63,286 nucleotides of DNA from positions 1 through 63,286 of the forward strand of contig JBFMHI010000001.1 of assembly GCA_040753085.1 (NCBI GenBank). Direction: 5' to 3'. The translations under genes and the position numbers were made by a program. Shown here piece by piece: positions 16,279 through 40,511 of this stretch. The notes beneath the pieces were generated by a model, which was not told where the DNA came from, made no database searches, and saw nothing but the letters and a program-made list of their open reading frames with translations. Origin of the DNA: a bacterium. Its GTDB lineage: Bacteria > UBA9089 > JASEGY01. Numbering within the stretch: position 1 is the stretch's first letter; every line of letters starts with the position of its first letter.

Positions 16279-16451
16279 AGATGCTCGATGCTCGATGCTC
16301 GATGCTGGATGCTCGATCCTCGATCCTCGTTGCTCGATCCTCGATGCTCGATCCTCGATGTTCGATGCTCGATGCTCGATCCTCGTTGCTCGATCCTCGA
16401 TGCTCGATGCTGGATGCTTCGATGCTCGAGGCTCGAGGATCGAGCATCGAG
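16279..16451. repeat. CTCGATG-type degenerate tandem array filling an entire intergenic gap
   Basis: GCTCGATGCTCGATGCTGGATGCTCGATCCTCGAT... All three plus frames are open across it (track ORFs 16264, 16268, 16281). Confidence 0.9.
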
Positions 16452-19325
16452 TTAAAAATCATACCCCAGGCTAAAGTGGAAGACAGATTTGCTTTTAATT
16501 TCTTTCAAGTCAGTAGGAAAGGCCCAATCAAGCCTGATAGGGAAGAAACCAAGGGTCAATCTGGTCCCCAGGCCGATAGCGCTGTGGAACCTCTCCCCTA
16601 AGTGATTTTTATCGTCATTCCAGAATCTGGGTTTTTCCGACTCATTCCATGCCCCGCCTAAATCGAAAAAGCCTACCCCACTAATGCCCTTCAAAGATAT
16701 AGGTAGAGGGAAGGCCAGGTCGAGCCGGTCGATAAAGGGGACTCTCAGTTCTAAATTGGCTATAACCACCCGGTTGCCCCAAAACTTGTTGTATTGAACC
16801 TCACGCATGTCCCAACTGCCGCCCAGAGGAAAGATGTCAGGGTCTTTTCCTTCACTTATCTCTCCGGCTATCCTGAAGGCCAGAGCCGATCGGGCTGATA
16901 GTCTGATATACTTCCTCACATCGAGGATGTAATTGGTAAAACTCCGTTTTTTGAAAAAGACCGGCACTGACTGCTCTACCCTCAATACTAACCTGGCCCC
17001 ATCTATGGGGGCCAATAAGCCCCACCTGGTCGTATCTTTCACATAAGAGAGGCCAACTATGTCCGCCCCCTCTTCTCTGACTTCGATCTCATCGGTTCCG
17101 GTCAAAAACTCCTCTCCTTTGAACTCAGAGATAAATTCAGCCTCCAGTCGGCGAAAGGTGTCAAGGGGATAAGCCAAGTAGAGAAAACCTCCATACCGGC
17201 GATTATCCAATTCCTTGTCTTCATCCCAGAAACGTAAATCCCTCCAGTTGAATAAACCCACCCCCACTACCGGTCTTTTGGCTAAATAGAGATAACGAAG
17301 AACAAGATTGAGATCAGCCAGGTTGCTAATCGTAGTTAAATAATCCGTCAAGAGGATAAAGCGGTGATTACCCAGGATATCACTGACGGCAATTTCAGTA
17401 AACCCGGTGAAGCCCTGACTGGTATTGTAAATTATATTACCCTGCGCCCAGTCCATGGTCAGATGCATTTTATAATCCTTCAGTTCAAAGGAAGTGTCAA
17501 CAGAGGCCTCTTGCTTGGTCAACTTAGCCAGTTCATCCGCCTTTCCGCTCTGGGCGGTATAATCTAAGCCCCTTCCTACCTCTTCTCTGGTTAGCTTCTC
17601 CAGTTCACTCACATAGGTCACCGGTTCGCCCTCAAGATAAGCCGTGAAGGCCAATCTTTTCCCATCTCTTGATACCCTGGGAGATCGAGATCCACCCAAA
17701 GAATTGGTCAACTTCATCATCTGCTCAGACTCAAGATTATACTCATAAATGTCATAACCGCCCCCTATATCAGAGGCAAAATATAATCGCTTTCCATTCG
17801 GCCCCCAGGCTGGGTCTACATTTTGCTGGCCATTTTGGATCAGGGGCCTGATGGGAAGGCGGAAGGCGGCTGGCGCACCCACTTCGTGGGTACCCGGGAT
17901 TATTGAGTCTAATTCAAGCAGGTAAATATCCCTGGCCTCACCATTTTCCACGACAAAGGCGATCTGCCTTTCATCCGGAGAACAGGCCGGTTGGTAAGCA
18001 GTAAATGTATCCGCCGTAAGCTGAGTAAGGGTGGTAGTTGTTGAAGGATCAAAGAGATAGAGGCTGCTTTTTCCGGCCTTTGTGCCGGCAAAGACCAGTC
18101 TTTTTCCCAACCAGGCCGGTGAAGAAAGGCTATCTAACCCTTCAAGAGGAATTCGCTTTGTGGCCTCTTCTCCAGGCACGTCTCGGATCAAGAAGTAATC
18201 CTTGGCCTTCTTGCTAACCAACAAGACAATAAATCGGCCGTCAGGAGACCAGTCAAGAGGATTTCCTTCCATATTTACCTCTTCAAGTTCATCAAACCCG
18301 AATTTATCCACCTCAACGCCGTCTTCAACCTTGATCAGGCTAACCCCGGCTCCCTTGTATCCATGTCTGGTTAAGACCGCCATTAAGTCTCCGCCGGCGG
18401 ACCACACCGCCCCAAGGCTTATTTTATTGATCAACTTTTTGCCGTAAGTTTCCGGAGGTTCCTTGTCTGCCACATTAGGATAATATTTTCTCTTAGCATA
18501 TCTTAGCCACCCTTCCCAGACCTCGGGAAGTTCCTGGCCTAAAGTTGATTTTACCACGGTTTCTATATTAGGTGAATCCCTGTATTTCTTGATCAGAAGG
18601 GCCGGCTTGTCCGGACCGTAAGTTTCAGCAATGTAGCCGACAAAGGAGGCGCTTTGTTTATACCCCAGGTAGACCTTAGGGGAGCTGGAAAAATCAGCCA
18701 TCTCTTTCAAGGGAATGAGATCGTTATCAATAACGGCGTTTTGAAGGACAGCCTCGCCTTCCGGGTCCATCTTCCCGGCTCCATATTCGGCTATCCCCTC
18801 CATTAACCAAAGGGGCGGGGGGGTAATCATCCGGCTGGAAAAGAAGGCGCCAAAAGCATCTCGATAAAGTATATCGTAGGTAAAGATATGAACTAACTCG
18901 TGGGTAACGACGTGCTGAAACTGGGCATAGGAACCGGTAAAAGGTATGACAATCCGGTATTTGAATATCTCAGCAAATCCCCCCACCCCCCGATCAATAA
19001 ACTCCAGGATAACATTGGTTTGTTGGAAATCAGAATGGGAGGGGAATATGATGAGGGGGATAGCCCGGCTGACTTTGAAGTCAAAATCTTGAGATACCTT
19101 GCGATAGGCCTCTTCAGCAAATTCAGCCGCTTTAGCGGCCAGGATTTCTGTGCCGGGATGGAAGTAAATATCAAAATGTTTGGTGGAGGCTATCTTCCAG
19201 GTAAAGTCTTTATACCTGACCCGGTTTTTACCAAAATCTTGCCCGATTACAGGTTGGGAAAAGAGAAGAGAGATAAAAATCCAGCCTATGATGAAAAGCT
19301 TAGTTTCGAGTTTTAAGTTATCCAC
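16452..19325 (-). CDS. fusion protein: MA-clan HExxH peptidase-like domain + PD40/TolB-like beta-propeller + Omp85/BamA-type beta-barrel
   Basis: Signal peptide; VVTHELVHIF and WLMEGIAEY; repeated PD40-like segments (SPDG, DPAWGPNGKRLYFASD, SRDGKRLAF); C-terminus GVGFFDLGGAW...IRLDWAFP...FHFSLGYDF. Confidence 0.7.
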   Translation of the reverse strand: MDNLKLETKLFIIGWIFISLLFSQPVIGQDFGKNRVRYKDFTWKIASTKHFDIYFHPGTEILAAKAAEFAEEAYRKVSQDFDFKVSRAIPLIIFPSHSDFQQTNVILEFIDRGVGGFAEIFKYRIVIPFTGSYAQFQHVVTHELVHIFTYDILYRDAFGAFFSSRMITPPPLWLMEGIAEYGAGKMDPEGEAVLQNAVIDNDLIPLKEMADFSSSPKVYLGYKQSASFVGYIAETYGPDKPALLIKKYRDSPNIETVVKSTLGQELPEVWEGWLRYAKRKYYPNVADKEPPETYGKKLINKISLGAVWSAGGDLMAVLTRHGYKGAGVSLIKVEDGVEVDKFGFDELEEVNMEGNPLDWSPDGRFIVLLVSKKAKDYFLIRDVPGEEATKRIPLEGLDSLSSPAWLGKRLVFAGTKAGKSSLYLFDPSTTTTLTQLTADTFTAYQPACSPDERQIAFVVENGEARDIYLLELDSIIPGTHEVGAPAAFRLPIRPLIQNGQQNVDPAWGPNGKRLYFASDIGGGYDIYEYNLESEQMMKLTNSLGGSRSPRVSRDGKRLAFTAYLEGEPVTYVSELEKLTREEVGRGLDYTAQSGKADELAKLTKQEASVDTSFELKDYKMHLTMDWAQGNIIYNTSQGFTGFTEIAVSDILGNHRFILLTDYLTTISNLADLNLVLRYLYLAKRPVVGVGLFNWRDLRFWDEDKELDNRRYGGFLYLAYPLDTFRRLEAEFISEFKGEEFLTGTDEIEVREEGADIVGLSYVKDTTRWGLLAPIDGARLVLRVEQSVPVFFKKRSFTNYILDVRKYIRLSARSALAFRIAGEISEGKDPDIFPLGGSWDMREVQYNKFWGNRVVIANLELRVPFIDRLDLAFPLPISLKGISGVGFFDLGGAWNESEKPRFWNDDKNHLGERFHSAIGLGTRLTLGFFPIRLDWAFPTDLKEIKSKSVFHFSLGYDF
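17853..17898. repeat. intragenic palindromic element, copy A
   Basis: GGAAGGCGGAAGGCGGCTGGC followed by GCACCCACTTCGTGGGTACCCGGG. Read on the minus strand as IPGTHEVGAPAAFRLP. Confidence 0.85.
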
Positions 19326-19373
19326 TTTACCTATATCCCCTTTATCGGTGATCGGTCATCGGTAACAATTGAT

Positions 19374-19486
19374 GTAACCGTTCAGCCACCAAGGCACAAA
19401 GACACAAAGGGGAAAATATCTGTTGAGCTATTAAGAAATAATCCTTTAATCTTTGTGTGTTAGTGTCTTTGTGGCGGAACACTTAC
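19374..19486. mobile_element. MITE, family A, short variant
   Basis: Termini are GTAACCGTTCAGCCAC and GTGGCGGAACACTTAC. The 8-bp direct repeat CAATTGAT lies at 19366-19373 and 19487-19494. Confidence 0.85.
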
Positions 19487-19542
19487 CAATTGATTACTGG
19501 TTACTCCTCACCGATGACCGATCGCCTGGTTGCGCCGAGTTA

Positions 19543-20151
19543 TTAAGAAGATACAATCCCCCCACTATTTCTAAATAGGGCCAACTTTTCCTCCATTGAA
19601 CCCTCAGGCACATCAATCCCTCTGGTGGCCTCAAGGAGAATGGTGACCTCATATCCATTTTCCAGACCATCCATCGCCGTAAAATAAACGCAAAAATCCG
19701 TGGCCAGCCCGGCCAAGTAAAGATGTTTTACTCCAAGTGCCTTGAGGTAGCCGTCGAGTCCGGTAATGGCTGTCTTCGAGTTGTCTCGAAAACCAGAGTA
19801 AGAATCCACCTCAGGATCCATACCCTTGCGCAGGATCATTCGGATAGGTTCAGGTTCCAGATCATTTACCAATTGAGCCCCCTTGCTCCCCTGAACACAG
19901 TGATCAGGCCATAGAACCTGGGTGGTGCCTTGAAGATCGATGGTCTCAAAGGGCTTTTTGCCAGGATGAGCCGAAGCAAAGGACTTATGACCAGGCGGAT
20001 GCCAGTCCTGGGTGGCAATGACAATATCAAAGGCCTTCGTAAGCCGGTTAATAAGAGGGACAATGCGATCACCTTCAGGCACAGGTAAAGCCCCTCCCGG
20101 GCAAAAGTCATTTTGGACATCGATGATGAGTAGAGCTTCTTTATTTCCCAT
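19543..20151 (-). CDS. pncA: nicotinamidase/pyrazinamidase
   Basis: ALLIIDVQNDFCPGGALPV, QDWHPPGHKSFA and LAGLATDFCV blocks. Confidence 0.85.
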   Translation of the reverse strand: MGNKEALLIIDVQNDFCPGGALPVPEGDRIVPLINRLTKAFDIVIATQDWHPPGHKSFASAHPGKKPFETIDLQGTTQVLWPDHCVQGSKGAQLVNDLEPEPIRMILRKGMDPEVDSYSGFRDNSKTAITGLDGYLKALGVKHLYLAGLATDFCVYFTAMDGLENGYEVTILLEATRGIDVPEGSMEEKLALFRNSGGIVSS

Positions 20152-20225
20152 AATTTCTCCCTCCTATACCTCTCGGTAATCGGTAATCAATACCGATTAC
20201 CTGATGGCCTGAGGAGACTATCTGT

Positions 20226-21578
20226 TTACAAATCGATATCAATCGGGGTTTGGAGAGAAAGGATAGCCCATTTAGGATTATCCAGCTGAGATACATACCA
20301 TTGCCCGGCTTCATATTCCAAATAATCCTCAGCCGGCGCAGATATTATTTCCTTCTCATCCCAGTCTCCATCACTATCCGTGTCATCCCAGGCTCGGACA
20401 TCGTAGGCGTAATCTGAAGGTGTGGCTGGAAGCTCGATCTGATAACGATAATTTCCATTCGACTCCACCACTGATCCCGTAACTATTATTTTCGGGGGAG
20501 CACTCCACTTAGTCAATCCAACCCATATCTTTCCAGTTGGTTCTTTGGTGGTTCTAATGGTTCCGATTACCTTTGGTTTCTCGCCTTCGCTAACCACCTT
20601 AAATAGGCCGGCCGTCAGGGAGAGGTTTTGGAACTTTTCATTAGAAGCCGCCAAGAGATACCACTTATATGTCTCTCCAATAGTAAGAGATTGGGGGACT
20701 TTGATGTCGGTTGTCTGGTAGAGGAAATTGCTGGTCCAGAGAGGATAGCAGGGCTCGCTTTCTTCATCAGTGATTCTAACCTCGTATAGGGATGCCCCCG
20801 AGACTGCTTGCCAAGTAAGAGTCGGGGTTGAGCTGGTTTCCTGACGGTCCTTAGGTTGGATGATTTCCGGGAGGGGAAGAGGCGCCTCGACTAATTCTTT
20901 GGTAACCTGGAGAGGAGGAGAATCCGTAAAAATCACGGTAAGGGTATATGCGCCGAGGAAAGAAGCGGTGGACATCGGTAAAGTAAGACCGTAGTGGCTA
21001 TCCGAAGGCCCATTATTTTCTATCAGACAAATACCCTCGGGTTCAGTATCTTTAAGTTCATATTCCTTCTTATCGTGTCCCGTGACTGTAACTGAATCTA
21101 TTATTTGGGGATTTATATCCCGTAATGTAGCTTCCAAGAGAAGATAGTATCCCTCAGCAAACCCTGGATAGGCATTCGGAGCAAGATGAAGGCTTAAAAT
21201 GGAATAAGATAGGTCTATTTGATGATTGGCTTTAACCACTGTAATTTCGATATGTTGCCTTACCTGGGTCTGACCATCGTCTACGGTTACAGTAATGGTG
21301 TAAGCGCCGGCCGTTGGCGGAGCGGTCCAGGTTATAGATTCCCCCCTGCCGGTAATACTTCCCGGCTCATATATCCAGGAATAGGTGAGGGCATCTCCAT
21401 CCGCATCCTCAGCCTTAACCGTTATAGTAGTAGTGTCTCCTGTTTCTACGGTGGTCGGGTAAGCTGACAGATCGTTAATGACCGGCGGCTGGTTTTCGGA
21501 CTCTGTCCCCTTATCCCTTCCGCAGCCCATCGGAAATAAAAAAAGAAGCAGGCATAAAAAAACAGCTTTTTGGTTCAT
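20226..21578 (-). CDS. lipoprotein with an Ig-like (PKD-like) domain and FN3-like modules
   Basis: Lipobox FPMGC. NQPPVINDLSAYP...AEDADGDALTYSW...WTAP..AGAYTITVTVDDGQ is paralogous to the N-terminus of 39223..40092. Confidence 0.6.
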   Translation of the reverse strand: MNQKAVFLCLLLFLFPMGCGRDKGTESENQPPVINDLSAYPTTVETGDTTTITVKAEDADGDALTYSWIYEPGSITGRGESITWTAPPTAGAYTITVTVDDGQTQVRQHIEITVVKANHQIDLSYSILSLHLAPNAYPGFAEGYYLLLEATLRDINPQIIDSVTVTGHDKKEYELKDTEPEGICLIENNGPSDSHYGLTLPMSTASFLGAYTLTVIFTDSPPLQVTKELVEAPLPLPEIIQPKDRQETSSTPTLTWQAVSGASLYEVRITDEESEPCYPLWTSNFLYQTTDIKVPQSLTIGETYKWYLLAASNEKFQNLSLTAGLFKVVSEGEKPKVIGTIRTTKEPTGKIWVGLTKWSAPPKIIVTGSVVESNGNYRYQIELPATPSDYAYDVRAWDDTDSDGDWDEKEIISAPAEDYLEYEAGQWYVSQLDNPKWAILSLQTPIDIDL

Positions 21579-21758
21579 CTTAGTAAGGCTAATCCCTTTA
21601 GTAAACTCTGTAGCCGTAAGCCTTGTTCTATCAGACCCTATTTTATTCTACACTTTTCTCGCCATATTGTCAACTAAGAAAATGAGACAGCAGCCACGGA
21701 TTAACACAGATAAAATAATTATAACCATTCAGTCCTTTTTTGTCGTACTGTCTACTTT

Positions 21759-22058
21759 TTACCAGAGTTTTCTTAGGTTCTTTAGCCCTTTTAAGTAATC
21801 CTCATATTCTAAGTTTGCCTCAATCCCGTATCCTTTGAGGATCTCCATCATCTTTGAGATAGAAACACCGGCTATCTTTGCAGATTTTTCAATGGATGCC
21901 TCTTGTTTTTTATACTTTTCTATGGCAAGCATTATTCTTCCCCACTCAAGAAGTTCCCTTACAGACTTTGAAATATCCTCTTTTTCTTCTTTTGCAAGAA
22001 AGGAAAGGAAGTCATAATCCTCGCCCTTTATGCGTATACTCAGGGTCTTAGGGGCCAT
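21759..22058 (-). CDS. UPF0175-family antitoxin-like protein
   Basis: Size, and the C-terminal HTH-like SAKIAGVSISKMMEILKGYGI. Adjacent to the PIN gene. Confidence 0.6.
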   Translation of the reverse strand: MAPKTLSIRIKGEDYDFLSFLAKEEKEDISKSVRELLEWGRIMLAIEKYKKQEASIEKSAKIAGVSISKMMEILKGYGIEANLEYEDYLKGLKNLRKLW

Positions 22059-22060
22059 CT

Positions 22061-22561
22061 TTACCCACCTCCTCTAATTTGGTTCATTGCATCTTCAATT
22101 ATTGTTTCCTTATATCTGCCAATAGATTGAAGTTTTTTAAGTCTTATAAGGGCTTCATTTCTATCAATTAGCCTCTTTTCAAACACTCTTATTAAGACAG
22201 CAATTGCTGTAACAAAATCTAACCTTAAGGCTTTGCATGCCTTTATGGCATTTCTATCATCTGTGGCAATTATACAATTCTTTTCTTGAAGAGCAAGCGT
22301 TAATGCTTCTGCCTCACCTACATCTATATTAAAATCTTCCATAAGTTTTTGGATGAGATTGATCTGTTTTGGTCTTAAAACCTCGATTCTTTTCTCTTTA
22401 ATCAACTTAGCGATCAAATGCGTATCTTCCCTTTTCCCTTTTTCTACCTCTAATTTAATTTTTAGGGAAACCAAAGTTCTATCCGGGAAATTTAAGAGAA
22501 ATGCATCTAAAATCTCTATCTTAGTAAGGAGAATGATTGTAGAGGAGTCAAAAACTATCAT
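22061..22561 (-). CDS. PIN-domain protein (COG2405/DUF3368-like)
   Basis: MIVFDSSTIILL...ATDDRNAIKA has acidic residues in PIN-like positions. The start at 22561 is preferred because the promoter -10 lies 6 nt upstream. Confidence 0.6.
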   Translation of the reverse strand: MIVFDSSTIILLTKIEILDAFLLNFPDRTLVSLKIKLEVEKGKREDTHLIAKLIKEKRIEVLRPKQINLIQKLMEDFNIDVGEAEALTLALQEKNCIIATDDRNAIKACKALRLDFVTAIAVLIRVFEKRLIDRNEALIRLKKLQSIGRYKETIIEDAMNQIRGGG

Positions 22562-22567
22562 ATTACA

Positions 22568-22596
22568 ATTATATGACATTTATATGACAATGTCAA
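22568..22596 (-). promoter_or_regulatory. sigma70-type promoter TTGACA-N17-TATAAT implying a leaderless PIN mRNA
   Basis: On the minus strand, TTGACA (22596-22591), a 17-nt spacer, TATAAT (22573-22568), then TGTAAT and the ATG at 22561. Confidence 0.45.
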
Positions 22597-22918
22597 GAAA
22601 AAAAAATTCGACCTGTGCGGTTAGATCTCTACTGCGAATGAGAAAACTATTACTATTCTCTGGGCAACAACAGGGCAACCACGTTTCGGCCAGTCGGAAT
22701 AGAGTCCGTTGTCCACATCGTCGGATTCCTCTTGACAAATTTAAGAATTTATAGTGTAATAGTAACTACTCAGCCATTAAGGCACAAAGACACAAAGACT
22801 ACCAATAATAGCACACGGATTACACGGATGAGACGGATTGACATGGAGCGTCTCGCCTGGGGTCATATTCACAGCCGGCACGGCTGTGGGCTGCTTTTGG
22901 GATAGGCACTAAGACGTT

Positions 22919-25363
22919 ATGTTCCTTTCTATCTTACTCATTGGCCTTACTTCCATGGTCTCTCAAGTCATCCTCTTGAGAGAACTCATGGCCGCGGTCG
23001 GTGGGAATGAGCTTTTAATCGGTTTAACTCTGGCCTCCTGGCTTTTTTGGGCAGGCGTAGGCAGCAGTCTGCCCAGCCCGTGGGTTGATAAATTGAGACG
23101 ACCCCACCTGGCCCTGGGAATGGCTCAAATAATCATTTCCGTGGCCTTGCCCGCGGTTATTATCCTGGTCAGGGTCAGAGGGTTATTTCCTGACCTCCTC
23201 CCCGGCGAAATGATTGACCCCCGGTTTATGATCCTCCTGGCCTTGCTTTCACCAGCCCCCCTGTCAAGCCTCCTTGGTCTTCAGTTTATCTTAGCCTGCA
23301 GGGGAAAGACATCTCCATTTCGGATTGCGGATTTCGGATTGCGGATTGGAAAATCCGAAATCCGAAATCCGCAATCCGCATTCCGTCATCCCGCGTACCC
23401 ACGAAGTGGGTGCACCCTCCGCCATCGGGACGATCCGCCATCCGCAAGGCGGTGGGTTACTTCGGTTTACATTCTGGAGGCCTTAGGGGCAAGCGGGGGC
23501 GGCTTGATTTTCAGTCTGCTTATCCCATTAATCTTGCCGCTCCATATCATCATCTACCTTAGCTTACTTAATTTGATCTCGGCTTTTTTCCTGCTAACAA
23601 GAAGCGAGATGCGATTCGGTCTTAAGGTCGGGACTTTTACCCTTGGGCTCGTCATTCTATTGGGATTTTTAATAATGGCCGAAAGGATGGAAGATATTTC
23701 ACAATCTTTCCGATGGCGGAATTTGGAACTGGTCAAGACTCAGGACTCTATTTATGGTCGTGTTTCAATTATCCGATTGGGGGATGAATTCAGCTTCTAT
23801 GAGAATGGAGGCCTTATGTTTACCACCCGGGATCGGATTAGGTCTGAGGAATTAGTTCATCCGGCCCTTCTCCAGCATCCCAATCCCCAAAAGATACTTT
23901 TGATCGGCGGAGGCGTAGGTGGCGCCCTTCTTGAGATTCTTAAGTATCCTGTAAAAGAGATCGATTATCTGGAACTTGATCCCCTGGTGATTGAGCTATC
24001 CCGCCGGATACTTCCGCCGGAAGACCTCCAGGCCCTGGAAGATAGACGGGTCAGGCTAAGACACGTTGACGGCCGCTTTTTCATCAAGCAAACTAAACAG
24101 CGCTACGACGTCATCCTGGTTAATCTGCCTGATCCCTCTACGGCCCAGATTAATCGCTTTTATTCTCAAGAATTCTTTGAGGAGGCCAAACAGGCGCTCC
24201 GGCCGGCCGGCCTTATTGCCTTTGGACTGACTTCCTCTGAAAACTATATCAATCCCGAGCTGCAGCAACTTCTCTCTTGTATCTTTACCACCTTGAAGCT
24301 GAGTTTTACCAGGGTAATTGTTATTCCTGGAGACACGAATTACTTTTTGGCCAGCGAGACTATTGATTTGACCTTAAATCCAGGTAAATTGATAGAGAGA
24401 CTTAAAAAGAGAAAAATAGAGACAAGATATATCTCAGAGGCTTATCTCCCCTCCAGACTGACGCCTGATAGGATAGCTTATCTCCAACGCACTTTAACTG
24501 AGCCTATTTCGCACCCACTTTGTAGGTACCCGGGATTTCGGATCTTCCCTTCCGCCCTCGGAACCATCCGAACAAATTCTGATTTTACGCCTATTGGTTA
24601 TCTTTATTACCTTCTTACTTGGGGAACTCATTTCCCCTCATCGCTTCAGCCCATTATTACCGCTCTTTCCCGGATGGGACCTGAACTCCCTTTTTTGGCA
24701 GTACCTTTTTTTTTAGTTATTATGCTGCCGCTGGCTTTTCGGTTTCGTCGAAGACTCCCGGTTATTACGGCAGTGGCCACCACAGGTTTAGCCGAGATTG
24801 CCTTTCAGATAATTATCATCCTGGCCCATCAGGCAATTTATGGCTACGTTTATTACCGACTGGGGCTTATTATGGCCCTCTTTATGGCCGGCCTTGCTCT
24901 GGGAGGATGGTGGGTCAGAAGACAGAAGACAGAAGGCGGAAGGCAGAAATCAGAAGAAGAACTAGCCGAAATCCCGGGTACCCACAAAGTGGGTGTGAAA
25001 TCCGCCCTCGAAAGACTAACTGGGATCCAACTGGTAGTAGTTATTTATTCTTTTTTACTGCCTTTTGTTTTCTTGGGACTGGCTAAAATCAGGGGTGGAG
25101 AATTTATCTTTATCCTTCTGCCCCTTGTGGCCGGACTGGTTGGGGGTCTTCAATTTCCTCTGGCCTGTGAAGCTTGTTGGGAAGAGGGTGGGATAGCCAA
25201 AACTACCGGATTGGTTTATGGCGCCGACCTTTTTGGGGCCTGTCTGGGAGCGGGCCTGATCAGTCTTGTCCTGATCCCGCTCCTGGGTTTAATTTGGACC
25301 GCTTTCTTTACAGCGGTGATTAATTTAGTAAGTTTGATCCTGCTGCGAATGACTCAAAAATAA
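22919..25363 (+). CDS. polytopic membrane protein fused to a spermidine-synthase-like methyltransferase-fold domain
   Basis: N- and C-terminal TM bundles. The central block has ILLIGGGVGGALLEILKY...YLELDP...YDVILVNLPDP, as in spermidine synthases. Three in-frame repeat inserts. Confidence 0.7.
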   Translation: MFLSILLIGLTSMVSQVILLRELMAAVGGNELLIGLTLASWLFWAGVGSSLPSPWVDKLRRPHLALGMAQIIISVALPAVIILVRVRGLFPDLLPGEMIDPRFMILLALLSPAPLSSLLGLQFILACRGKTSPFRIADFGLRIGKSEIRNPQSAFRHPAYPRSGCTLRHRDDPPSARRWVTSVYILEALGASGGGLIFSLLIPLILPLHIIIYLSLLNLISAFFLLTRSEMRFGLKVGTFTLGLVILLGFLIMAERMEDISQSFRWRNLELVKTQDSIYGRVSIIRLGDEFSFYENGGLMFTTRDRIRSEELVHPALLQHPNPQKILLIGGGVGGALLEILKYPVKEIDYLELDPLVIELSRRILPPEDLQALEDRRVRLRHVDGRFFIKQTKQRYDVILVNLPDPSTAQINRFYSQEFFEEAKQALRPAGLIAFGLTSSENYINPELQQLLSCIFTTLKLSFTRVIVIPGDTNYFLASETIDLTLNPGKLIERLKKRKIETRYISEAYLPSRLTPDRIAYLQRTLTEPISHPLCRYPGFRIFPSALGTIRTNSDFTPIGYLYYLLTWGTHFPSSLQPIITALSRMGPELPFLAVPFFLVIMLPLAFRFRRRLPVITAVATTGLAEIAFQIIIILAHQAIYGYVYYRLGLIMALFMAGLALGGWWVRRQKTEGGRQKSEEELAEIPGTHKVGVKSALERLTGIQLVVVIYSFLLPFVFLGLAKIRGGEFIFILLPLVAGLVGGLQFPLACEACWEEGGIAKTTGLVYGADLFGACLGAGLISLVLIPLLGLIWTAFFTAVINLVSLILLRMTQK
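23317..23455. repeat. intragenic palindromic element, copy B (with an ATTTCGGATTGCGG inverted-repeat hairpin)
   Basis: Core GTACCCACGAAGTGGGTGCACC at 23395-23416. Translated as PFRIADFGLRIGKSEIRNPQSAFRHPAYPRSGCTLRH... Confidence 0.85.
24511..24572. repeat. intragenic palindromic element, copy C
   Basis: GCACCCACTTTGTAGGTACCCGGG followed by ATTTCGGATC.... Translated as SHPLCRYPGFRIFPSALG. Confidence 0.8.
24918..25009. repeat. intragenic palindromic element, copy D
   Basis: AGAAGACAGAAGACAGAAGGCGGAAGGCAGAAATCAGAAG followed by CCCGGGTACCCACAAAGTGGGTGTG. Translated as ...EIPGTHKVGVKSALE. Confidence 0.8.
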
Positions 25364-25377
25364 ATCCCTTATCATTT

Positions 25378-27942
25378 TCAGACCACGATATTTACTATCT
25401 TCTTAGGCACATAGATCAATTTTCTTATTTCTTGGCCTGAAATAAAGCGGGCTACATTTTCATCAGCCAGGGCAGCGGCCTTGATCTCTTCTTCAGAGGC
25501 ATCAGCTCTAACCTTGATTTTCCCTCTCAACTTGCCCTTGACCTGAACAATAATCAGTATCTCTTCTTCAACTATCACCGCCGGATCAAACTGGGGCCAG
25601 GGTTGTTGGAGCACACTGGGCCGGTGGCCTATTCTTTCCCATAGATCTTCAGCCAGATGTGGGGCAAAGGGAGAGAGAAGCAGGATAATAGCCTCTATGG
25701 TCTCCTTGAATACAGCCGAATTGATTGACTCGACCTGGTAGACCTCATTAACCAATTCCATAATAGCCGCAATAGCCGTGTTAAATTGAAAGCGCCGACT
25801 AATATCTTCACTTACCCGTTTAATCGTTTGGTGAGTAAATCTATGCAGCCTTTGTTCGGTGGGGCTAAGTTGATCAGGAAGGGAGACGGCTGCTTCTCTG
25901 AGGAGCTTGAGATTAGAGTCAACTAACCGATTTACCCTCCTTAAAAACCGGAAGGCCCCTTCTACTCCCCGGTCACTCCAATCGAGGTCACGCTCCGGAG
26001 GGGAGGCAAATAAGATAAAGACCCTGACTGTATCAGCCCCGTATTTTTCAATAATATCTCCCGGGTCTACCACATTGCCTTTTGATTTAGACATCTTGGC
26101 CCCATCCTTGATGACCATGCCCTGCGTGAGTAGATTGGTAAAAGGTTCCTTGGGGGTCAAGAGTTTTAAGTCGTACATAACCTTGGTGAAGAAGCGGGCA
26201 TAGAGAAGATGAAGAATGGCATGTTCTATGCCGCCGATGTATTGATCCACCGGAAGCCAGTAGTTAGCCTTAGTTCGATCAAAGGGCACCTTAGTCTGGT
26301 GCGGATCGACAAACCTGGCAAAATACCAGGATGAATCAACAAAGGTGTCCATTGTATCGGTCTCTCTTTTGGCCGGGCCGCCACATTGAGGGCACTCCGT
26401 TTGAACAAAGTCGTCTATTTTATAAAGATGGGATTGAGCCTCTTCATATATATTAAGGTCGGGCAACTTGACGGGTAGATCCTCCTCCGGCACCGGCACT
26501 GGGCCACACTTCGGACAGTAGATAATGGGTATGGGTGTGCCCCAGTATCTCTGTCTGGAGACAAGCCAATCCCGGAGACGGTAATGGATGGTGGCCTTAC
26601 CCATACCTTCGGACTCCATCCAGTCAATAATGGCCCCGATGGCTTCCTTACTGGGCATCCCATCAAATTGGGCCGAATTAACCAAAAATCCCGCTTCTTC
26701 ATAAGCCTCTTTCATGCTATCTACTGACAGCTCCTGCCCCGAGGGCTGGATAACTACCCGCATGGGAAGGTGGTGGGCTTTGGCAAATTCAAAATCCCTC
26801 TGATCGTGGGTAGGCACCGCCATAATAGCCCCAGTGCCATATTCCATCAGGACATAGTTGGCCACCCAGATAGGTATTTCCTCACCATTAACCGGGTTAA
26901 GAGCGGTTCGACCCGTGAGTATGCCTTCTTTGGAAAGTTCTATCTCGGCCGGATCACGTCCTTTCCAGCGGTCAACAAATTCCCATACTTTTTTTTCCGT
27001 AGGGAGTCCTTTGATTAATTGAGGCAGCAGGGGGTGTAGGGGGGCCAGAACCACGTAGGTGGCTCCAAAGATGGTATCCGGACGGGTGGTAAAGACAGGG
27101 ATTTCTGAAGACGGAAGGCGGATGTCGCACCCACTTCGTGGGTACCCGGGCTGGTCAACGACTTTGAAATAGATCTCCACGCCCTTACTTTTACCGATCC
27201 AGTTCTGCTGCATCGTCAGGACCCTCTCCGGCCAATCACCCAGCAGAGAGTGGTCTTCTAATAGGGCATCGGCATAAGCCGTGATCTTAAAAAACCACTG
27301 AGCCAGTTGACGCTGGGTAACCGCCGAGTCGCATCGCCAGCAGAGACCTCCGATCACCTGTTCATTGGCCAAAACCGTTAAGCAGCTCGGACACCAGTTA
27401 ACCGCGGCTTCTTTTCGGTAAACCAGCCCTCGCTCGTAGAATTTCAGGAAAAACCACTGATTCCAGCGGTAGTAATCTTCCCCGCAGGTAGCGATCTCAC
27501 AATCCCAATCGTAAGCAAACCCCAGACGCTGCAACTGATTACTCATATAGTTAATATTTTCAATGGTCCATTTAGCCGGCCGGAGGCGTTGATCCAGGGC
27601 AGCATTTTCAGCCGGCAGGCCAAAGGCATCCCAACCCATCGGATGAAGGACATTATAGCCCTGCATAATCTTGAATCTGGCCAGGGCATCTCCGATAGTA
27701 TAATTTCGCACATGGCCCATGTGGATGCGGCCCGAAGGGTAGGGAAACATCTCCAGGCAATAATACTTGGGTTTATCAGGATCAACTTTCGTCTTAAAGA
27801 GTCCCTGTTTCTCCCAATATCTCTGCCATTTGGTCTCAATTTCCTCAAAGGGGTAGTCCTTACCCATTTCGGATTTCGGATTTCGGATTTCGGATTTCGC
27901 ACCCACTTCGTGGGTACCCGGGATTTCGGATTCTAAATTCAT
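25378..27942 (-). CDS. leuS: leucyl-tRNA synthetase
   Basis: PYPSGRIHMGHVRNY (HIGH region), VFTTRPDTIFGATY and KMSKSKGN. The start at 27942 has GAGAGG 8 nt upstream. An alternative ATG at 27867 would skip the repeat-encoded N-terminus. Confidence 0.93.
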   Translation of the reverse strand: MNLESEIPGTHEVGAKSEIRNPKSEMGKDYPFEEIETKWQRYWEKQGLFKTKVDPDKPKYYCLEMFPYPSGRIHMGHVRNYTIGDALARFKIMQGYNVLHPMGWDAFGLPAENAALDQRLRPAKWTIENINYMSNQLQRLGFAYDWDCEIATCGEDYYRWNQWFFLKFYERGLVYRKEAAVNWCPSCLTVLANEQVIGGLCWRCDSAVTQRQLAQWFFKITAYADALLEDHSLLGDWPERVLTMQQNWIGKSKGVEIYFKVVDQPGYPRSGCDIRLPSSEIPVFTTRPDTIFGATYVVLAPLHPLLPQLIKGLPTEKKVWEFVDRWKGRDPAEIELSKEGILTGRTALNPVNGEEIPIWVANYVLMEYGTGAIMAVPTHDQRDFEFAKAHHLPMRVVIQPSGQELSVDSMKEAYEEAGFLVNSAQFDGMPSKEAIGAIIDWMESEGMGKATIHYRLRDWLVSRQRYWGTPIPIIYCPKCGPVPVPEEDLPVKLPDLNIYEEAQSHLYKIDDFVQTECPQCGGPAKRETDTMDTFVDSSWYFARFVDPHQTKVPFDRTKANYWLPVDQYIGGIEHAILHLLYARFFTKVMYDLKLLTPKEPFTNLLTQGMVIKDGAKMSKSKGNVVDPGDIIEKYGADTVRVFILFASPPERDLDWSDRGVEGAFRFLRRVNRLVDSNLKLLREAAVSLPDQLSPTEQRLHRFTHQTIKRVSEDISRRFQFNTAIAAIMELVNEVYQVESINSAVFKETIEAIILLLSPFAPHLAEDLWERIGHRPSVLQQPWPQFDPAVIVEEEILIIVQVKGKLRGKIKVRADASEEEIKAAALADENVARFISGQEIRKLIYVPKKIVNIVV
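27101..27150. repeat. intragenic palindromic element, copy E (inside leuS)
   Basis: ATTTCTGAAGACGGAAGGCGGATGTC followed by GCACCCACTTCGTGGGTACCCGGG. Read as QPGYPRSGCDIRLPSSE immediately before VFTTRPDT. Confidence 0.85.
27866..27933. repeat. intragenic palindromic element, copy F (leuS 5' end)
   Basis: (ATTTCGG)n followed by GCACCCACTTCGTGGGTACCCGGG and ATTTCGGATTC. Read as SEIPGTHEVGAKSEIRNPKSE. Confidence 0.85.
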
Positions 27943-27953
27943 TTTTAGCCTCT

Positions 27954-28676
27954 CTATGCTTCGCCACTCGCTTTTTCCAGGATCTCGATTAATTCTTGAG
28001 CCAAGTTTATTACTTTTTGAGCCTTATCTTTATCAATCTCGGCATGCCAGTCATATCTGGCTTTGTTTCTTTGTTCCAGACTATTATTCAAGTTTCGTCC
28101 CAAATGAGGTGGCAATATCCCCGTTTTGACGTATATCTCTCCAAACCGACCGACAACACCACCGTGAGATTGAGGCAATATATCCTGTTTTAATAAAATT
28201 AGTCCCTTGACTACGAGTTCAGCGCTATTATAAGAAAGGTCTACACATGCCCGATATTGACCTTCATGTAAGTTGACCTCCGCCGAACGTAGATACTCTT
28301 TAGCCAGTTCCAATAAATTAAAGGCTTCCTTTTTCTTTAATTCTTCTCTTTCCATCTGATAAATCTCCTTCCCATAACGAGTAGCCGAATAGAGAAAGTA
28401 TGAAGGCGGATGTCTATATTCCTCTATACAGTAAACCAGCGGTTCAATGCTTTCCTTATATTCGATGGCCAGATCAAAGGAAATTTCATGGCATAGCTCT
28501 TGAATCGTTCTTAGGCGATCCGTTCCGATTACAATCAGATCAATATCGCTCCCTTCATCTTCTTCCCCTCTGGCTACACTGCCAAATAGATATATCCCGG
28601 CTACCGAAGAAGCAATAGGGTTATCTAATATTTTAGTAGTAAAGGCCTTTAGGGCCAGATGCTTATTGGAAATCAT
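27954..28676 (-). CDS. fused nucleotidyltransferase-HEPN protein
   Basis: N-terminal LFGSVARGEEDEGSDIDLIVIG. The C-terminal HEPN-like helices are LELAKEYLRSAEVNLHEGQYRACVDLSYNSAELVVKGL...SHGGVVGRF. Confidence 0.7.
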   Translation of the reverse strand: MISNKHLALKAFTTKILDNPIASSVAGIYLFGSVARGEEDEGSDIDLIVIGTDRLRTIQELCHEISFDLAIEYKESIEPLVYCIEEYRHPPSYFLYSATRYGKEIYQMEREELKKKEAFNLLELAKEYLRSAEVNLHEGQYRACVDLSYNSAELVVKGLILLKQDILPQSHGGVVGRFGEIYVKTGILPPHLGRNLNNSLEQRNKARYDWHAEIDKDKAQKVINLAQELIEILEKASGEA

Positions 28677-29676: not shown

Positions 29677-31638
29677 ATGAGAATAATGCATAATATTAGT
29701 GCCATCTTTGCCCAACGGCATTTGCGGATTACTAATGAAATGATAAATGAAAATATAGAAAAGTTATCCAGCGGTTACCGGATCAATCGGGCGGCTGACG
29801 ATGCGGCTGGGCTGGCGGTTTCAGAAAAGTTTCGTTCTCAGATAAATGGCCTTGATCAAGGCCTTAGAAACACTATGGATGGGATATCGGTCGTCCAAAC
29901 TGCCGAAGCCGGACTGGAAGAAGTCCACAAGATGCTTCAGCGGATGAGAGTTCTATCCGTGCAGGTGGCTAATGGGAGCTACACTGACGACGACAGAAGC
30001 ATGGTGCAGGTAGAGGTCGATCAAATACTGGATGAGATTGACCGGATGGCCGAGTCGGTCCAGTTTAATACCTTAAAATTATTTACTGGTAATTTTTCAA
30101 AGGACTCACCTTACCCACTGACTCAGAATGCCAGCCAGAGGGAGGTCGTGAAAGGAACAGCCCGGATAGACCTCAATGCCCGTTTTTCTACGGCCGGTTT
30201 TGATGGGGGCACCCCCAATGGCGCCATCATCGTTAATGGGGTCACCTTTTCTTTAGCCGATTATTCCTCGGTTAGAGAATTTATCGAGGCCGTTAATGCC
30301 TCCCAGGAGGCCGGCGTAACCTTAGAATACGATAAGAGTGCTGATAAATTTATCTTCCAGAGCAAGGAAATCGAGGAGAACCTGACTCTCATAGAAAAGC
30401 CGGTCACAGAGGGACATGGGTTCCTGACTATGGCCAAGATCGAGTCAGGCACGACCCCGGCCATCTTTGACCACGCCGCTACGGCCATCACCCGCTATCA
30501 AGCCGCCCTCGCCGGAACAGATGCCGACTACATAACCAATAACAACATTATCGACATTACTAAGCCTTTTTCCTCGGCCGGGTTTGATCTCTCAGTTACC
30601 GGAACGGTAACGGTTAACGGAGAAAAATTCAGCATTGCCAAATACAGTAGTGTCTTGCAATTTATGAAGGCCATCAATGAGTCTGAAAGGGCCGATGCCA
30701 CTATCCGTTATGATGCCGAGACCGATCAGTTTACTATCCGCACAGATACGCCGGGTCAGGATCTTCGCTTAGAGGAAACCACCTCTGCCGGGACAGCCGA
30801 CGAGGTTGGATTCTTTACCGCCGTAGGCATACAACCCCTCCTTTACCTTGCCCCCAGTCTGACCGCCGCAAAAACGAGCACGGAAAGGGTCAAGCTTGAT
30901 GGAACCTATGTTGATGTAGATAAAGGATTTGCCGCTGACAACTTCCGAGGAAAAGATATCGGAGGGGTGGCCATCATTAATGGTCAAATCTTCTCTATAG
31001 CCGATTACAAAACCGTTCAGGAGTTTATAGACGAGGTCAATAGGAATGAGGCGGCTGATGTAACCATGACCTATGATAAGAGCACTGATCAATTTATTAT
31101 CAGAAGAGATACGCCTGGTGAGAATCTTAGACTTGCCGAGGTGGCTTCCTCGGCAGGCAGCACCTTCTTCAAGGAAATCAATATGGCCATCGGGACAACT
31201 AAACCGGCTGTGCCTGATGGCTTTGAGGAATGGCAAGGGAGTCTGGTGCTTCACGTGGGGGCTAATAAAAATGAGACCTTCAGTGTGCATATTCAGACTA
31301 TGACCACGGCGGGGCTGAAAATCGATATGTTGAAGGAGCTTGGGTTAACTACCAGAGAGAGGGCGGAGAGCGCTATCAAAAAATTCCAGAAGGCGATTGA
31401 TCAGGTTTCGGTTCTGCGGTCCAATTTAGGCGCCTATCAAAACCGACTAGAACACACCTTGAACTTTGTGGAAATAGCCCATGAGGAAATGACTGCTTCG
31501 GAAGCCAGGATTCGTGATCTTGATATGGCCAGCGAGACATCGCTTTTTACCCGAAACCAGATATTGGCTCAAGCTGGAACGGCTATGTTGGCTCAGGCCA
31601 ATCTGATGCCTCAGAGTGTCTTACAGTTGTTAAGCTAA
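29677..31638 (+). CDS. giant flagellin paralogue 1 (653 aa) with three IN-motif-like internal repeats
   Basis: N-terminal MRIMHNISA...LSSGYRINRAADDAAGLAVSEK. C-terminal LGAYQNRLEHT...RIRDLDMASE...ILAQAGTAMLAQAN. The central unit INGxxFSxADYxxVxEFxxAVNxxxxAxVTxxYDxxxDxF occurs three times. Confidence 0.9.
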   Translation: MRIMHNISAIFAQRHLRITNEMINENIEKLSSGYRINRAADDAAGLAVSEKFRSQINGLDQGLRNTMDGISVVQTAEAGLEEVHKMLQRMRVLSVQVANGSYTDDDRSMVQVEVDQILDEIDRMAESVQFNTLKLFTGNFSKDSPYPLTQNASQREVVKGTARIDLNARFSTAGFDGGTPNGAIIVNGVTFSLADYSSVREFIEAVNASQEAGVTLEYDKSADKFIFQSKEIEENLTLIEKPVTEGHGFLTMAKIESGTTPAIFDHAATAITRYQAALAGTDADYITNNNIIDITKPFSSAGFDLSVTGTVTVNGEKFSIAKYSSVLQFMKAINESERADATIRYDAETDQFTIRTDTPGQDLRLEETTSAGTADEVGFFTAVGIQPLLYLAPSLTAAKTSTERVKLDGTYVDVDKGFAADNFRGKDIGGVAIINGQIFSIADYKTVQEFIDEVNRNEAADVTMTYDKSTDQFIIRRDTPGENLRLAEVASSAGSTFFKEINMAIGTTKPAVPDGFEEWQGSLVLHVGANKNETFSVHIQTMTTAGLKIDMLKELGLTTRERAESAIKKFQKAIDQVSVLRSNLGAYQNRLEHTLNFVEIAHEEMTASEARIRDLDMASETSLFTRNQILAQAGTAMLAQANLMPQSVLQLLS

Positions 31639-31640
31639 TA

Positions 31641-31827
31641 CCTCGATCCTCGATGCTCGATACTCGATGCTGGATGCTCGATGCTCGATACTCGATGCTC
31701 GATACTCGATGCTCGATCCTCGATGCTCGATGCTTGATGCTGGATGCTCGATGTGGATGCTCGATGCTCGAGGCTGGATGCTCGATGCTGGAGGCTGGAT
31801 GCTCGAGGCTGGATGCTGGATGCTGGA
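31641..31827. repeat. CTCGATG-type array (left arm of a composite element)
   Basis: Starts 3 nt after the flagellin stop. Phantom ORFs lie on both strands. Confidence 0.9.
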
Positions 31828-32198
31828 TCAGGGCAATCGCATCAAATTTATCGACCTGTCCGGTTAGAATCTTTCGTTGTAACCGTTCAGGTATAGCTGC
31901 ACGGATTAGCACGGATAAATAACACAGGACAGAAGGCGGAAGTGTAGGGACAGGGCTTGTCCCTGTCCGTGCTTGTCCATGTCCGTTCCGTAGACGGACA
32001 ACCACAAGGGTTGTCCCTACAGCCTAAGGACAGACCCGAATCACGGACACGGCTCACGGATTTTCCGTGTTTCATCTGTGTGCATCTGTGGCTGAACGGT
32101 TACCTTTCATTTAAAACCGCTAAAGCGGTTACGGTTTACTATTATGTTGTCTTTGTTCGCATCACCCCGATAAATCAGGGTGCTAATCTCAATAAACA
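31828..32198. mobile_element. element X carrying a nested family A MITE (filled site)
   Basis: The sequences outside 31879-32102 are collinear with the reverse complement of 40341-40478. Confidence 0.8.
31879..32102. mobile_element. MITE, family A long variant, nested in element X
   Basis: Termini are GTAACCGTTCAGG and GGCTGAACGGTTAC. The TSD is CTTTCGTT (31871-31878) and CTTTCATT (32103-32110). The uninterrupted target GAATCTTTCATTTAAA is seen in the other copy of X. Confidence 0.85.
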
Positions 32199-32247
32199 CG
32201 AGGATCGAGCCTCGAGCCTCGAGCCTCGAGCATCGAGTCTCGAGCTC
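32199..32247. repeat. CTCGATG-type array, inverted orientation (right arm)
   Basis: CGAGGATCGAGCCTCGAGCCTCGAGCCTCGAGCATCGAG... Confidence 0.85.
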
Positions 32248-32820: not shown

Positions 32821-33230
32821 TCAAGGTCCGGTATTAATCGAGATTCAGGTGATAGTGAGATATGTCCGGATTCAACTATTCCTGAATAACGGCGACATCT
32901 TCTAAAATTCCGACCGCAAATGGAGGATTGCCTCAGGAAAGGGAGAAGATGGTTGAGGCCGGCGGCAGTCCGATGGGCAGACGGAGGTTAATTGAGCCTG
33001 ACTATTCGTCGGCCGGTCGGCTGGTTAAAGGGGAGATACGGTAACCACAAGGAGAACACCTTGTAAAAAGGCCAATAATTCAGGGGTTGGGATCTTTAAG
33101 GTTAAATAATTTTATTTATCTTAAATTCCACAACCTCTGATCCCTACCCCCTGAATTTAGGTGCCCTCCAGCGCCAGGGACGGCGCGGAGAACAAATACC
33201 CAATAATAATCATCAGGGAGGGTGATTGAC

Positions 33231-38121: not shown

Positions 38122-38249
38122 GTGAAACACCAGGCCACCAGACACCAGGTGGCCAGAGGGCTCTTCATAAATGGCCGAAACGATGAACATCGCCTAAATA
38201 TGAATACTTATAAATATTAAAATAGACTAAAATTATTATTACGCAATAC

Positions 38250-40242: not shown

Positions 40243-40506
40243 ACTCGATACTCGATGCTGGATGCTCTCGATGCTGGATACGGGGAGTCTTTGCCTGCCT
40301 CGAGTATCCAGCATCCAGCCTCGAGCATCGAGTATCCAGCTTTATTGAGATTAGCACCCTGATTTATCAGGGTGATGCGAACCAGACAACATAGCAAGCC
40401 GTAACCGCTTCAGCGGTTTTAAATGAAAGATTCTAACCGGACAGGTCGATAAATTTGAGGCGATTGCCCTGACCCAGCATCGAGCATCGAGCATCGAGCA
40501 TCGAGC
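40243..40506. repeat. composite: CTCGATG arrays flanking element X (empty site, inverted copy)
   Basis: Arrays at 40243-40340 and 40473-40506. X lies at 40341-40478 and lacks the nested MITE. Confidence 0.8.
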
Positions 40507-40511
40507 AATCA

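Follow-up and report, generated by a model that had tools for sequence, protein, structure and literature searches.

The locus

The 63,286-nt stretch analysed here (positions 1 to 63,286 of contig JBFMHI010000001.1, assembly GCA_040753085.1), hereafter called the window, comes from an uncultivated bacterium of the UBA9089 lineage and carries a short palindromic repeat within three long open reading frames (ORFs), those of a Peptidase_MA-PD40-Omp85 outer membrane protein (OMP), a fused membrane/spermidine-synthase-like (SpdS-like) protein and leucyl-tRNA synthetase (LeuRS) (Table 1). A search of both strands with the 24-mer GCACCCACTTCGTGGGTACCCGGG, allowing up to two mismatches, found six copies (A to F) within positions 17875-27922 and none in 100 dinucleotide-preserving shuffles of the window, and a profile search with nhmmer added no degenerate copies in the window. 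The original prediction, made from the letters of the window, had named these six palindromes and the three peptides into which they are translated, IPGTHEVGA, (A/G)YPRSGC and SHPLCRYPG; all six exist and the three translations are exact, and of its coordinates only those of copy B were off, by 3-5 nt. It had also placed every copy inside a long ORF without loss of the reading frame. This holds for the five copies inside public gene calls (P0121, 814 aa; P0241, 957 aa; and P0001) and probably for copy F as well.

Copy F lies upstream of the public LeuRS start at M26, yet inside the ORF that starts at 27942. The start ATGAAYYTARAATCCGAAATC, encoding MNL(K/E)SEI, is common to the window and its two closest relatives, the frame stays open through their differing arrays into the YPFEEIETKWQ body of the protein, the LeuRS genes of the two relatives have no alternative downstream ATG, and the upstream ATG lies 11 nt past the stop codon of the preceding HEPN-nucleotidyltransferase gene (27954-28676). 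Because of these features, the public call at M26 is probably too short and copy F probably coding. The HMGH and KMSKS catalytic motifs of LeuRS are intact.

Table 1 Host genes, inserts and palindrome copies in the window (mismatches are relative to the 24-mer)
Feature	Positions	Strand	Mismatches	Description
Host gene 1	16452-19325	-		Peptidase_MA + PD40 + Omp85 (BamA/TamA-family) protein, 957 aa
Insert A	17854-17909	-		about aa 473-491 of the Peptidase_MA-PD40-Omp85 protein; core + GGAAGGC tract (17854-17875)
Copy A	17875-17898	+	0	read by the minus-strand gene as IPGTHEVGA
Host gene 2	22919-25363	+		fused membrane/spermidine-synthase-like protein, 814 aa, three inserts (B, C, D)
Insert B	23309-23464	+		about aa 131-182 of the SpdS-like protein; inverted arrays, core, then degenerate heptamers
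Copy B	23390-23413	-	1	read as PAYPRSGC
Insert C	24503-24556	+		about 54 nt, 18 aa; ATTTCG, core, GATTTCGGATCTTCC...
Copy C	24511-24534	+	2	read as SHPLCRYPG
Insert D	24914-24999	+		CAGAAGA/GGAAGGC array (24914-24961) + core
Copy D	24973-24996	-	2	read as IPGTHKVGV
Host gene 3	25378-27942	-		leucyl-tRNA synthetase, 854 aa from the upstream ATG, 829 aa from M26
Insert E	27106-27153	-		48 nt, LeuRS aa 264-279; β-hairpin turn just before the VFTTRPDT block, entry of the editing domain
Copy E	27127-27150	+	0	read by minus-strand LeuRS as PGYPRSGC
Insert F	27868-27930	-		(ATTTCGG)x5 array (27866-27899) + core; between the MNL(E/K)SEI start and the YPFEEIETKWQ body
Copy F	27899-27922	+	0	read as IPGTHEVGA; N-terminal extension of the LeuRS ORF
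Predicted insert-derived peptides				SEIPGTHEVGAK and VVDQPGYPR, in window proteins

Anatomy of the repeat

The repeat was defined by comparing 32 copies: the six of the window, 25 from the related metagenome-assembled genome (MAG) Yes70-08 (GCA_030019105.1) and one on a related metagenome contig (L038). The conserved unit is a 22-23-nt core, CACCCACTTCGTGGGTACCCGG(G), a hairpin with a stem of 6 bp, a loop of 3 nt and, after the stem, an ACCCGGG tail. The complementary strand carries a C(GAA)G triloop, a known stable DNA mini-hairpin, for which the nearest-neighbour model shows nothing special. The phase of the core is fixed as GATT(G/T)CG / core / GATT(G/T)CG, with the left unit present in 30 of the 32 copies and the right unit in 28. 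Most often there are one or two heptamer units per side, and the lineage consensus around the core is attgcgGATTGCG-core-GATTgCGGATTgc, so that core and flanking units make up a composite of about 36-50 nt. The whole inserts in the window measure 48-156 nt, and between copies only the core is conserved. GTAG in copy C is an internal point variant only.

The low-complexity tracts beside the core, which the original prediction had correctly seen but treated as incidental, are 7-nt tandem arrays (ATTTCGG/ATTGCGG, GGAAGGC and CAGAAGA), and 7-nt arrays are plentiful throughout the window in both genic and intergenic DNA. In insert B, inverted ATTKCGG / CCGMAAT arrays (23317-23385) can pair within the coding sequence to give a strong hairpin of about 26 bp (-37.8 kcal/mol, z -7.8). 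The 24-mer is stop-free in all six frames, as had been claimed, and the arrays that adjoin the core are stop-free on both strands. By our estimate, however, roughly 10-30% of random GC-rich 24-mers are likewise stop-free in all frames. Tandem arrays of 50% of all heptamers have no stop codon on either strand, and for this reason the stop-freeness of the 24-mer is permissive, neither remarkable nor diagnostic.

Known families were searched for in several collections. Rfam at its gathering thresholds (the window and five loci) and at E≤10 (10 kb of the window and eight metagenome loci) gave no family at the element, and neither the viral contigs of IMG/VR nor the plasmids of PLSDB gave a real match to it or a vector. 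The analogies with dif, parS and Noc-binding sites were set aside, the resemblance in sequence being limited to CCCGGG. Contamination by a pUC-type polylinker, suggested by GGTACCCGGG (KpnI + SmaI), was rejected on the grounds that identity ends after 10 nt and the copies are mutated; it is also ruled out by their in-frame location in conserved genes of independent assemblies.

The inserts in their host proteins

When the three proteins were aligned with distant orthologues, sharing at most 67% identity for LeuRS, 44% for the SpdS-like protein and 41% for the OMP, all five internal inserts fell in gaps of the orthologues, as the original prediction had expected of lineage-specific insertions in bona fide genes, an essential aminoacyl-tRNA synthetase among them. 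The exception concerns the OMP loop of insert A, which in P0249, an OMP from Nitrospirota, is occupied by a long insert of unrelated sequence. At the site of insert D the alignment has a gap of 20 aa in distant orthologues, and at the site of insert E no LeuRS orthologue at or below 67% identity has any insert, the closest named relatives of this LeuRS being those of Nitrospirota (62%) and Poribacteria (60%). Conserved protein segments flank every insert in frame. By these alignments the inserts are foreign to their host proteins.

Structural information is available for LeuRS. Insert E aligns to a gap in the Thermus thermophilus enzyme (1H3N), at the hairpin turn that precedes TTRPDT. An AlphaFold2 model of the window LeuRS, built with 73 homologues, has a mean predicted local distance difference test (pLDDT) score of 84, and the score falls below 50 at residues 266-277, between the strands 251-261 and 280-285, and also at the N-terminal residues 1-16 and 22-27, which match insert F. 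The two LeuRS inserts are thus predicted to form a disordered loop (E) and a disordered N-terminal tail (F), and for this protein the loop location that the original prediction had expected agrees with the model.

Turnover at orthologous sites

The comparison that tells most was made with two close relatives, Yes70-08, whose LeuRS (on JASEGY010000136) is 85% identical to that of the window, and the Logan contig ERR14788458. Inserts occur at the same sites in these relatives, but their content and length differ. At site A, in the OMP, Yes70-08 has a heptamer-only insert of another length, and the core is found only in the window. At site B, in the SpdS-like protein, Yes70-08 also has the core, read in a different frame (RVPTKWV, versus PAYPRSGC in the window) within a region that is 21 nt longer. 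Site C of the same protein is empty in Yes70-08 and in every distant orthologue, which makes it the clearest presence/absence difference, and at site D the two genomes have aligned regions of equal length (123 nt), with (AATCCGC)n in Yes70-08 in place of the core. In LeuRS, site E holds heptamer-only inserts of 48 and 105 nt in the two 85%-identical relatives, and site F, at the N-terminus, holds in-frame arrays of other lengths without the core. Because four of the five orthologous inserts in Yes70-08 consist of an array without the core, the heptamer array, and not the palindrome alone, is the inserted and fast-evolving entity. The differences between relatives at sites A, C, D, E and F suggest turnover or mobility.

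The aligned regions that span the inserts are all multiples of 3 nt in length (108/132, 189/210, 126/72, 123/123 and 123/180/123 nt). Such a constraint is to be expected of translated segments and not of segments removed from the RNA; we therefore infer translation rather than excision.

The nature of the data raises the alternative that the inserts are artefacts, whether assembly chimeras at repeats, spurious ORFs or pseudogenes: the assemblies are short-read metagenomic ones, the genome is rich in repeats and many of the Yes70-08 contigs are short. Nevertheless, conserved protein continues in frame on either side of every insert, inserts occur at orthologous positions in three independent assemblies (the window, GCA_030019105.1 and Logan ERR14788458), the copies bear individual point differences and the catalytic motifs of LeuRS are undamaged. 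We regard an artefact as very improbable.

Copies elsewhere in the lineage

A tally of coding copies and frames, as proposed with the original prediction, was made for the copies found in Yes70-08. These 25 copies lie on 23 contigs, 23 of the copies in frames that stay open for 146 aa or more, and Pfam domains were recognised in all 19 of the frames tested. The hosts include DNA polymerase I, DnaX, ThiC, ArgJ, TrpE, a radical SAM protein and LarA, together with a GH3 glycosidase and a second SpdS-like protein that carry two copies each, and about one third of the copies lie in the first 40 codons of the open frame. With 5-6 of the 6 copies of the window counted as coding, 28 of 31 copies in the lineage are in long ORFs.

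Across 29 intragenic copies, five of the six possible frames are in use. Because the same DNA is read in so many ways, the conserved entity is the nucleotide sequence and not the peptide, and a conserved peptide motif was rejected on the same ground. Selection on the encoded linker nevertheless probably shapes which orientations survive, linkers of the PQSAIRN type being hydrophilic and those of the IADCGLR type not. A second mini-motif, GGATTGTTCCGATTG or GGATCTTCCGATT (read as QSEQ or QSED), interrupts heptamer arrays in L029 (5392-8010), L018, L024, L027 and L028, and may be another tiny module nested in arrays.

The core outside the lineage

In a scan of GTDB species representatives, the exact 23-mer was found once per genome in MAGs from Armatimonadota, Tectomicrobia, Chloroflexia (two MAGs) and a deltaproteobacterium, and 10 metagenome contigs from soil or peat, with a GC content of 44-71%, have it as well; by our estimate, fewer than one exact occurrence would be expected by chance in 596 Gb. 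It is absent from all cyanobacterial species genomes among the GTDB representatives. On these 15 out-of-lineage contigs the core stands without heptamers, and tblastx and blastn comparisons found no flank homology among them at the protein or DNA level, the core being all that they share. A reading of the singletons as a conserved gene fragment was rejected, since their flanks have no gene or sequence in common; the gene-borne insertions with heptamer arrays are a feature of the lineage of the window.

Where the context is readable, the singletons lie between convergent genes or 3' of a gene. The two flanks of a singleton show more complementarity to each other than they do to the flanking DNA of the other copies (P=0.007), and the core is often the centre of a larger inverted repeat, as in L020, where it lies in the middle of ACCCTCTCC...GGAGAGGGT. 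Near the singletons there are related hairpins in which CACCC...GGGTACCCGG is retained and the upper stem and the loop vary through compensatory changes. Among the variants are an ACCCGC/GCGGGT upper stem in L035, a 19-nt loop with 5' GTAG in L037 and L039 and, in L033, a head-to-head doublet. On L035, a peat or soil metagenome contig, four CCGGGTACCC-N6-7-GGGTG hairpins (8-28, 1133-1155, 1194-1217 and 1235-1246), one of which is the exact core, flank both sides of a single gene and differ in the upper stem in a compensatory way.

From these relatives the core looks like one variant of a broader, cross-phylum family of hairpins resembling repetitive extragenic palindromic sequences (REPs), and such a family could explain the exact matches without recent transfer between phyla. 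A bolder proposal, possible in our view but doubtful, is that the core belongs to a widespread, undescribed hairpin class (CACCC-stem-loop-stem-GGGTACCCGG) as an autonomous 'nano-mobile' module that would move within and between phyla without flanking DNA, into hairpin centres or heptamer arrays, by machinery specific for single-stranded DNA (ssDNA) hairpins, and that in one lineage would have expanded into housekeeping coding sequences.

Origin and persistence of the element

The reading that we favour, with a probability of roughly 0.6, is that of a selfish repeat of the small dispersed kind, which takes heptamer units along with it and is tolerated in genes as a translated, disordered loop. 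The travelling unit in this lineage would be the core with one or two GATT(G/T)CG units per side. After insertion the heptamers would expand, contract and recombine, and arrays already in place could acquire a core or lose it; through this turnover of arrays and gain or loss of cores, the insert would evolve far faster than its host gene. Genic copies would survive only if their total length is a multiple of three, if no stop codon arises and if they sit at a surface loop or terminus. The survivors would pass through transcription and translation to become short, disordered linkers of hydrophilic character that do nothing for the protein themselves, and would be neutral to slightly harmful rather than useful. 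Movement would take place by copying, for which we favour an enzyme that recognises a single-stranded hairpin; gene conversion or template switching between arrays would be the alternative.

A number of observations weigh against this reading. The core hairpin is of moderate stability (-4.9 to -5.5 kcal/mol, z -1.0 to -1.9 against shuffles), and the idea that it might be exceptionally stable was dropped on these values. No target-site duplications (TSDs) were found, including at site C, and no terminal inverted repeats (TIRs) beyond the 6-bp hairpin stem. Pfam searches of 38 of the approximately 55 long ORFs of the window gave no transposase, integrase or reverse transcriptase, only housekeeping functions, and tblastn of 287 kb of sequence with approximate probes for IS608 TnpA and RAYT, a weak test, gave no match. 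The translation of the inserts is itself deduced from DNA sequence. Furthermore, copies A to F all lie inside 10 kb of the 63 kb (P about 5e-4 for random placement of six), a pattern that resembles gene conversion on a local scale more than free transposition. Other points could reflect function: the IPGTHEVGA frame is the commonest among the intragenic copies (13 of 29; chi-square P=0.001 for the frame bias), the mRNA has the CCCGGGTACCCAC... strand in 22 of 29 (P=0.008), the core at site B differs between the two genomes at only 2 of 24 positions, fewer than its flanks, which a sequence-specific function would fit equally well or better, and the occurrence of the exact 23-mer in at least five other phyla fits such a function no worse than selfish spread.

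In one alternative the heptamer arrays are the sole dynamic entity, the core having arisen once in a GATTGCG array and spread with its flanks by homologous recombination, gene conversion or replication slippage between the many arrays of the genome, without a dedicated enzyme. Direct heptamer repeats stand on both sides of nearly every core and would supply the homology, four orthologous sites have arrays without the core, the copies of the window form a 10-kb cluster, several Yes70-08 genes carry two copies, and the searches made found no transposase. RecA-dependent conversion, however, would have very little to work with in 7-14 nt of flanking homology, the insertion at site C is new and has no array as its counterpart in Yes70-08, and conversion from array to array cannot explain the 23-mer without heptamers on 15 contigs of other phyla. 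Taken together, we think that recombination between arrays is unlikely to be the whole explanation.

Another alternative is that the 23-mer is a functional signal for a conserved host factor, recognised either as a DNA palindrome (GGGTACCC / CCCGGG) or as an RNA or ssDNA hairpin, with genic copies kept as useful; termination, mRNA stability, replication and nucleoid organisation are candidate roles. It would account for an identical 23-mer, core only, across Chloroflexia, Armatimonadota, Tectomicrobia, a deltaproteobacterium and the 10 soil and peat contigs, for the 3' or convergent position of these copies and their place at the centre of larger inverted repeats, for the compensatory upper-stem changes that preserve structure in the CCGGGTACCC-N6-7-GGGTG hairpins, and for the bias of orientation relative to transcription. 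Yet the element has no Rfam family even at E≤10, its hairpin energy is unexceptional, it has no T-run and is thus not terminator-like, and its placement in the lineage, at loops and ends of housekeeping and surface proteins that are not related to one another, looks indiscriminate. Moreover, copies come and go among close relatives, which would be unexpected for a needed signal. A conserved signal of this kind seems to us quite improbable, and a selfish repeat tolerated in loops and tails remains the reading that we prefer.

Other repeats in the window

Heptamer arrays without the core occur in further genes: one of the AAGACAG family (54507-54545) lies inside the 3' end of an LpxA-like ORF and one of AGGCTGA units (45307-45329) at the overlap of a BioD-like and an aminotransferase ORF, so arrays in coding sequences are not confined to the three core-bearing genes. 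Intergenic GATGCTC arrays of 22-27 units (16280-16436, 31642-31828, 32199-32245, 40297-40340 and 40476-40507) have inverted partners kilobases away, and none contains the palindromic core. A GTTTCGG x5 array (57851-57888) adjoins a match to the Rfam group II intron domains V/VI (57947-58025, minus strand; 58 bits against a gathering score of 40), which has no obvious reverse-transcriptase ORF nearby and may be a remnant or an ORF-less intron.

Longer repeats are also present. Within the ORF at 3940-5202, a 9-nt unit, GAGTGGACA, is repeated in tandem about 57 times and directly adjoins an inverted array of itself (4911-5043), the whole spanning 4398-5043; it would encode a tripeptide repeat of the (V/S)(D/G)(R/S) type and could form a very long hairpin, and the N-terminus of the ORF weakly matches PF05635 (23S rRNA intervening-sequence protein), below the gathering score. 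A dispersed repeat of about 180 nt (418-600 and, inverted, 31900-32103; 89-98% identity between copies; fragments at 19374-19417, 32104-32196 and 40341-40429) holds a GTAG-tagged hairpin, TGTAGGGACAACCCGTGTGGTTGTCC, and belongs to a classical REP- or MITE-like family (MITE, miniature inverted-repeat transposable element) separate from the core element. Three flagellin paralogues of 653-742 aa stand in a row (29677-31638, 33222-35228 and 35827-38055) with N-terminal DNA segments about 70% identical. A 73-nt intergenic repeat, 89% identical between its copies downstream of the last flagellin gene (38127-38199) and upstream of an hpf-like gene (51788-51860), is perhaps a small RNA or a regulatory element common to the two regions.

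Comparison with known repeat systems

The element differs clearly from MITEs, which are derived from insertion sequences, measure 70-300 nt and have TIRs and a TSD; here the only inverted repeat is the 6-bp stem, site C lacks a TSD and the composite is 36-50 nt long. The arrays by themselves resemble the short tandemly repeated repetitive (STRR) sequences and heptameric simple sequence repeats of cyanobacteria and Xanthomonas in that 7-nt units are over-represented, sometimes as inverted pairs, partly intragenic and at positions not conserved between related species. Heptamer repeats of this kind have been described in Nostoc, where 32% are intragenic in PCC 7120, and in Xanthomonas (Rehm et al. 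2015, PMC4692102). Theirs are G-quadruplex-forming GGGAATC/GGGGATT units, whereas those of the window are GGATTKC, GGAAGGC and GATGCTC, and one family hosts a palindromic core.

With REPs (20-40 nt) and REPINs, for which the work on REPINs and RAYT transposases provides the comparison system in a paper that also cites small dispersed repeats (Bertels and Rainey 2011, PMC3116915), the element shares an imperfect palindrome in many copies, some of them in genes that include tRNA synthetases and replication or repair genes. In other phyla the 23-mer lies between convergent genes, as REPs do, and the relative in L037 has a 5' GTAG. REPs inside tRNA-synthetase and replication or repair genes have already been reported (Di Nocera et al. 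2013, PMC3733652), and the surprise that the original prediction expressed at an essential target is less warranted, palindromic repeats in such genes being documented outside Rickettsia. In contrast to REPs and REPINs, however, the core has no GTAG or CGTC tag at its ends, its left flank being GATTGCG (variable in other phyla) and its right end CCCGGG; copies in the lineage are overwhelmingly intragenic, those of other phyla are extragenic, and inverted doublets are rare (L003, L025 and L033).

Rickettsia palindromic elements (RPEs) measure about 100-150 nt, encode about 30-50 aa and are, as far as is known, confined to Rickettsia. The original prediction had called the repeat RPE-like, and its behaviour justifies the comparison: it is inserted in frame in functional, including essential, ORFs, is absent from orthologues and appears compatible with the fold of the host, with structural support from LeuRS. 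It is nevertheless not an RPE. The conserved unit is only 22-23 nt (8 aa), the remainder of the insert is a variable heptamer array and the host is a deep-branching bacterium unrelated to Rickettsia. The likeness is to RPEs as they are summarised in PMC3733652, namely as palindromic repeats in frame in functional ORFs (Ogata et al. 2000).

In practical terms, these inserts inflate protein lengths, confuse start calls (M1 versus M26 in LeuRS) and break short-read assemblies. They also offer a natural experiment in how much unstructured insertion essential enzymes tolerate, and show that 7-nt arrays, in which every gain or loss of a unit is a frame shift, can persist in coding sequences. The identity of the 23-mer across phyla provides a handle for finding a mobilising or binding factor. 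The interest of the element rests on its tiny size, its coupling to heptamers, its invasion of housekeeping genes and its cross-phylum core more than on the RPE analogy.

By analogy, the closest structural counterparts appear to be the small dispersed repeats (SDRs) of cyanobacteria. As reportedly described by Elhai and colleagues in Genome Research in 2008, SDR1-8 of Nostoc punctiforme and its relatives are 21-27 nt long, form hairpins in some cases and are dispersed in many copies; they are said to lie at precise positions inside tandem heptameric repeats and HIP1, and their mobility is said to have been deduced from presence or absence at identical sites. We know of no enzyme that mobilises SDRs. 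The element studied here, when compared with these descriptions, has a dispersed unit of similar size (22-24 nt, 32 copies in the lineage), a core at a precise position in heptamer arrays and presence/absence differences at the orthologous sites A, C, D, E and F. Unlike the SDRs, its host is not a cyanobacterium, most of its copies are inside translated genes and its core is common to several phyla. Because the 23-mer matched no cyanobacterial genome in the scan of species representatives, it is probably a sequence family other than SDR1-8. Published passages on SDRs call them possibly mobile (PMC2884548) and describe their precise insertion into another repeat (PMC4390886). The phenomenon of a very small repeat nested in heptamer arrays, so far described only in Nostocales cyanobacteria, thus extends to an unrelated, uncultivated lineage, in which the repeat acts in the manner of RPEs and adds probably translated loops to LeuRS, DNA polymerase I, DnaX and many other proteins. 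Seen beside these systems, the element is a miniature relative of known selfish bacterial repeats and not a new kind of system.

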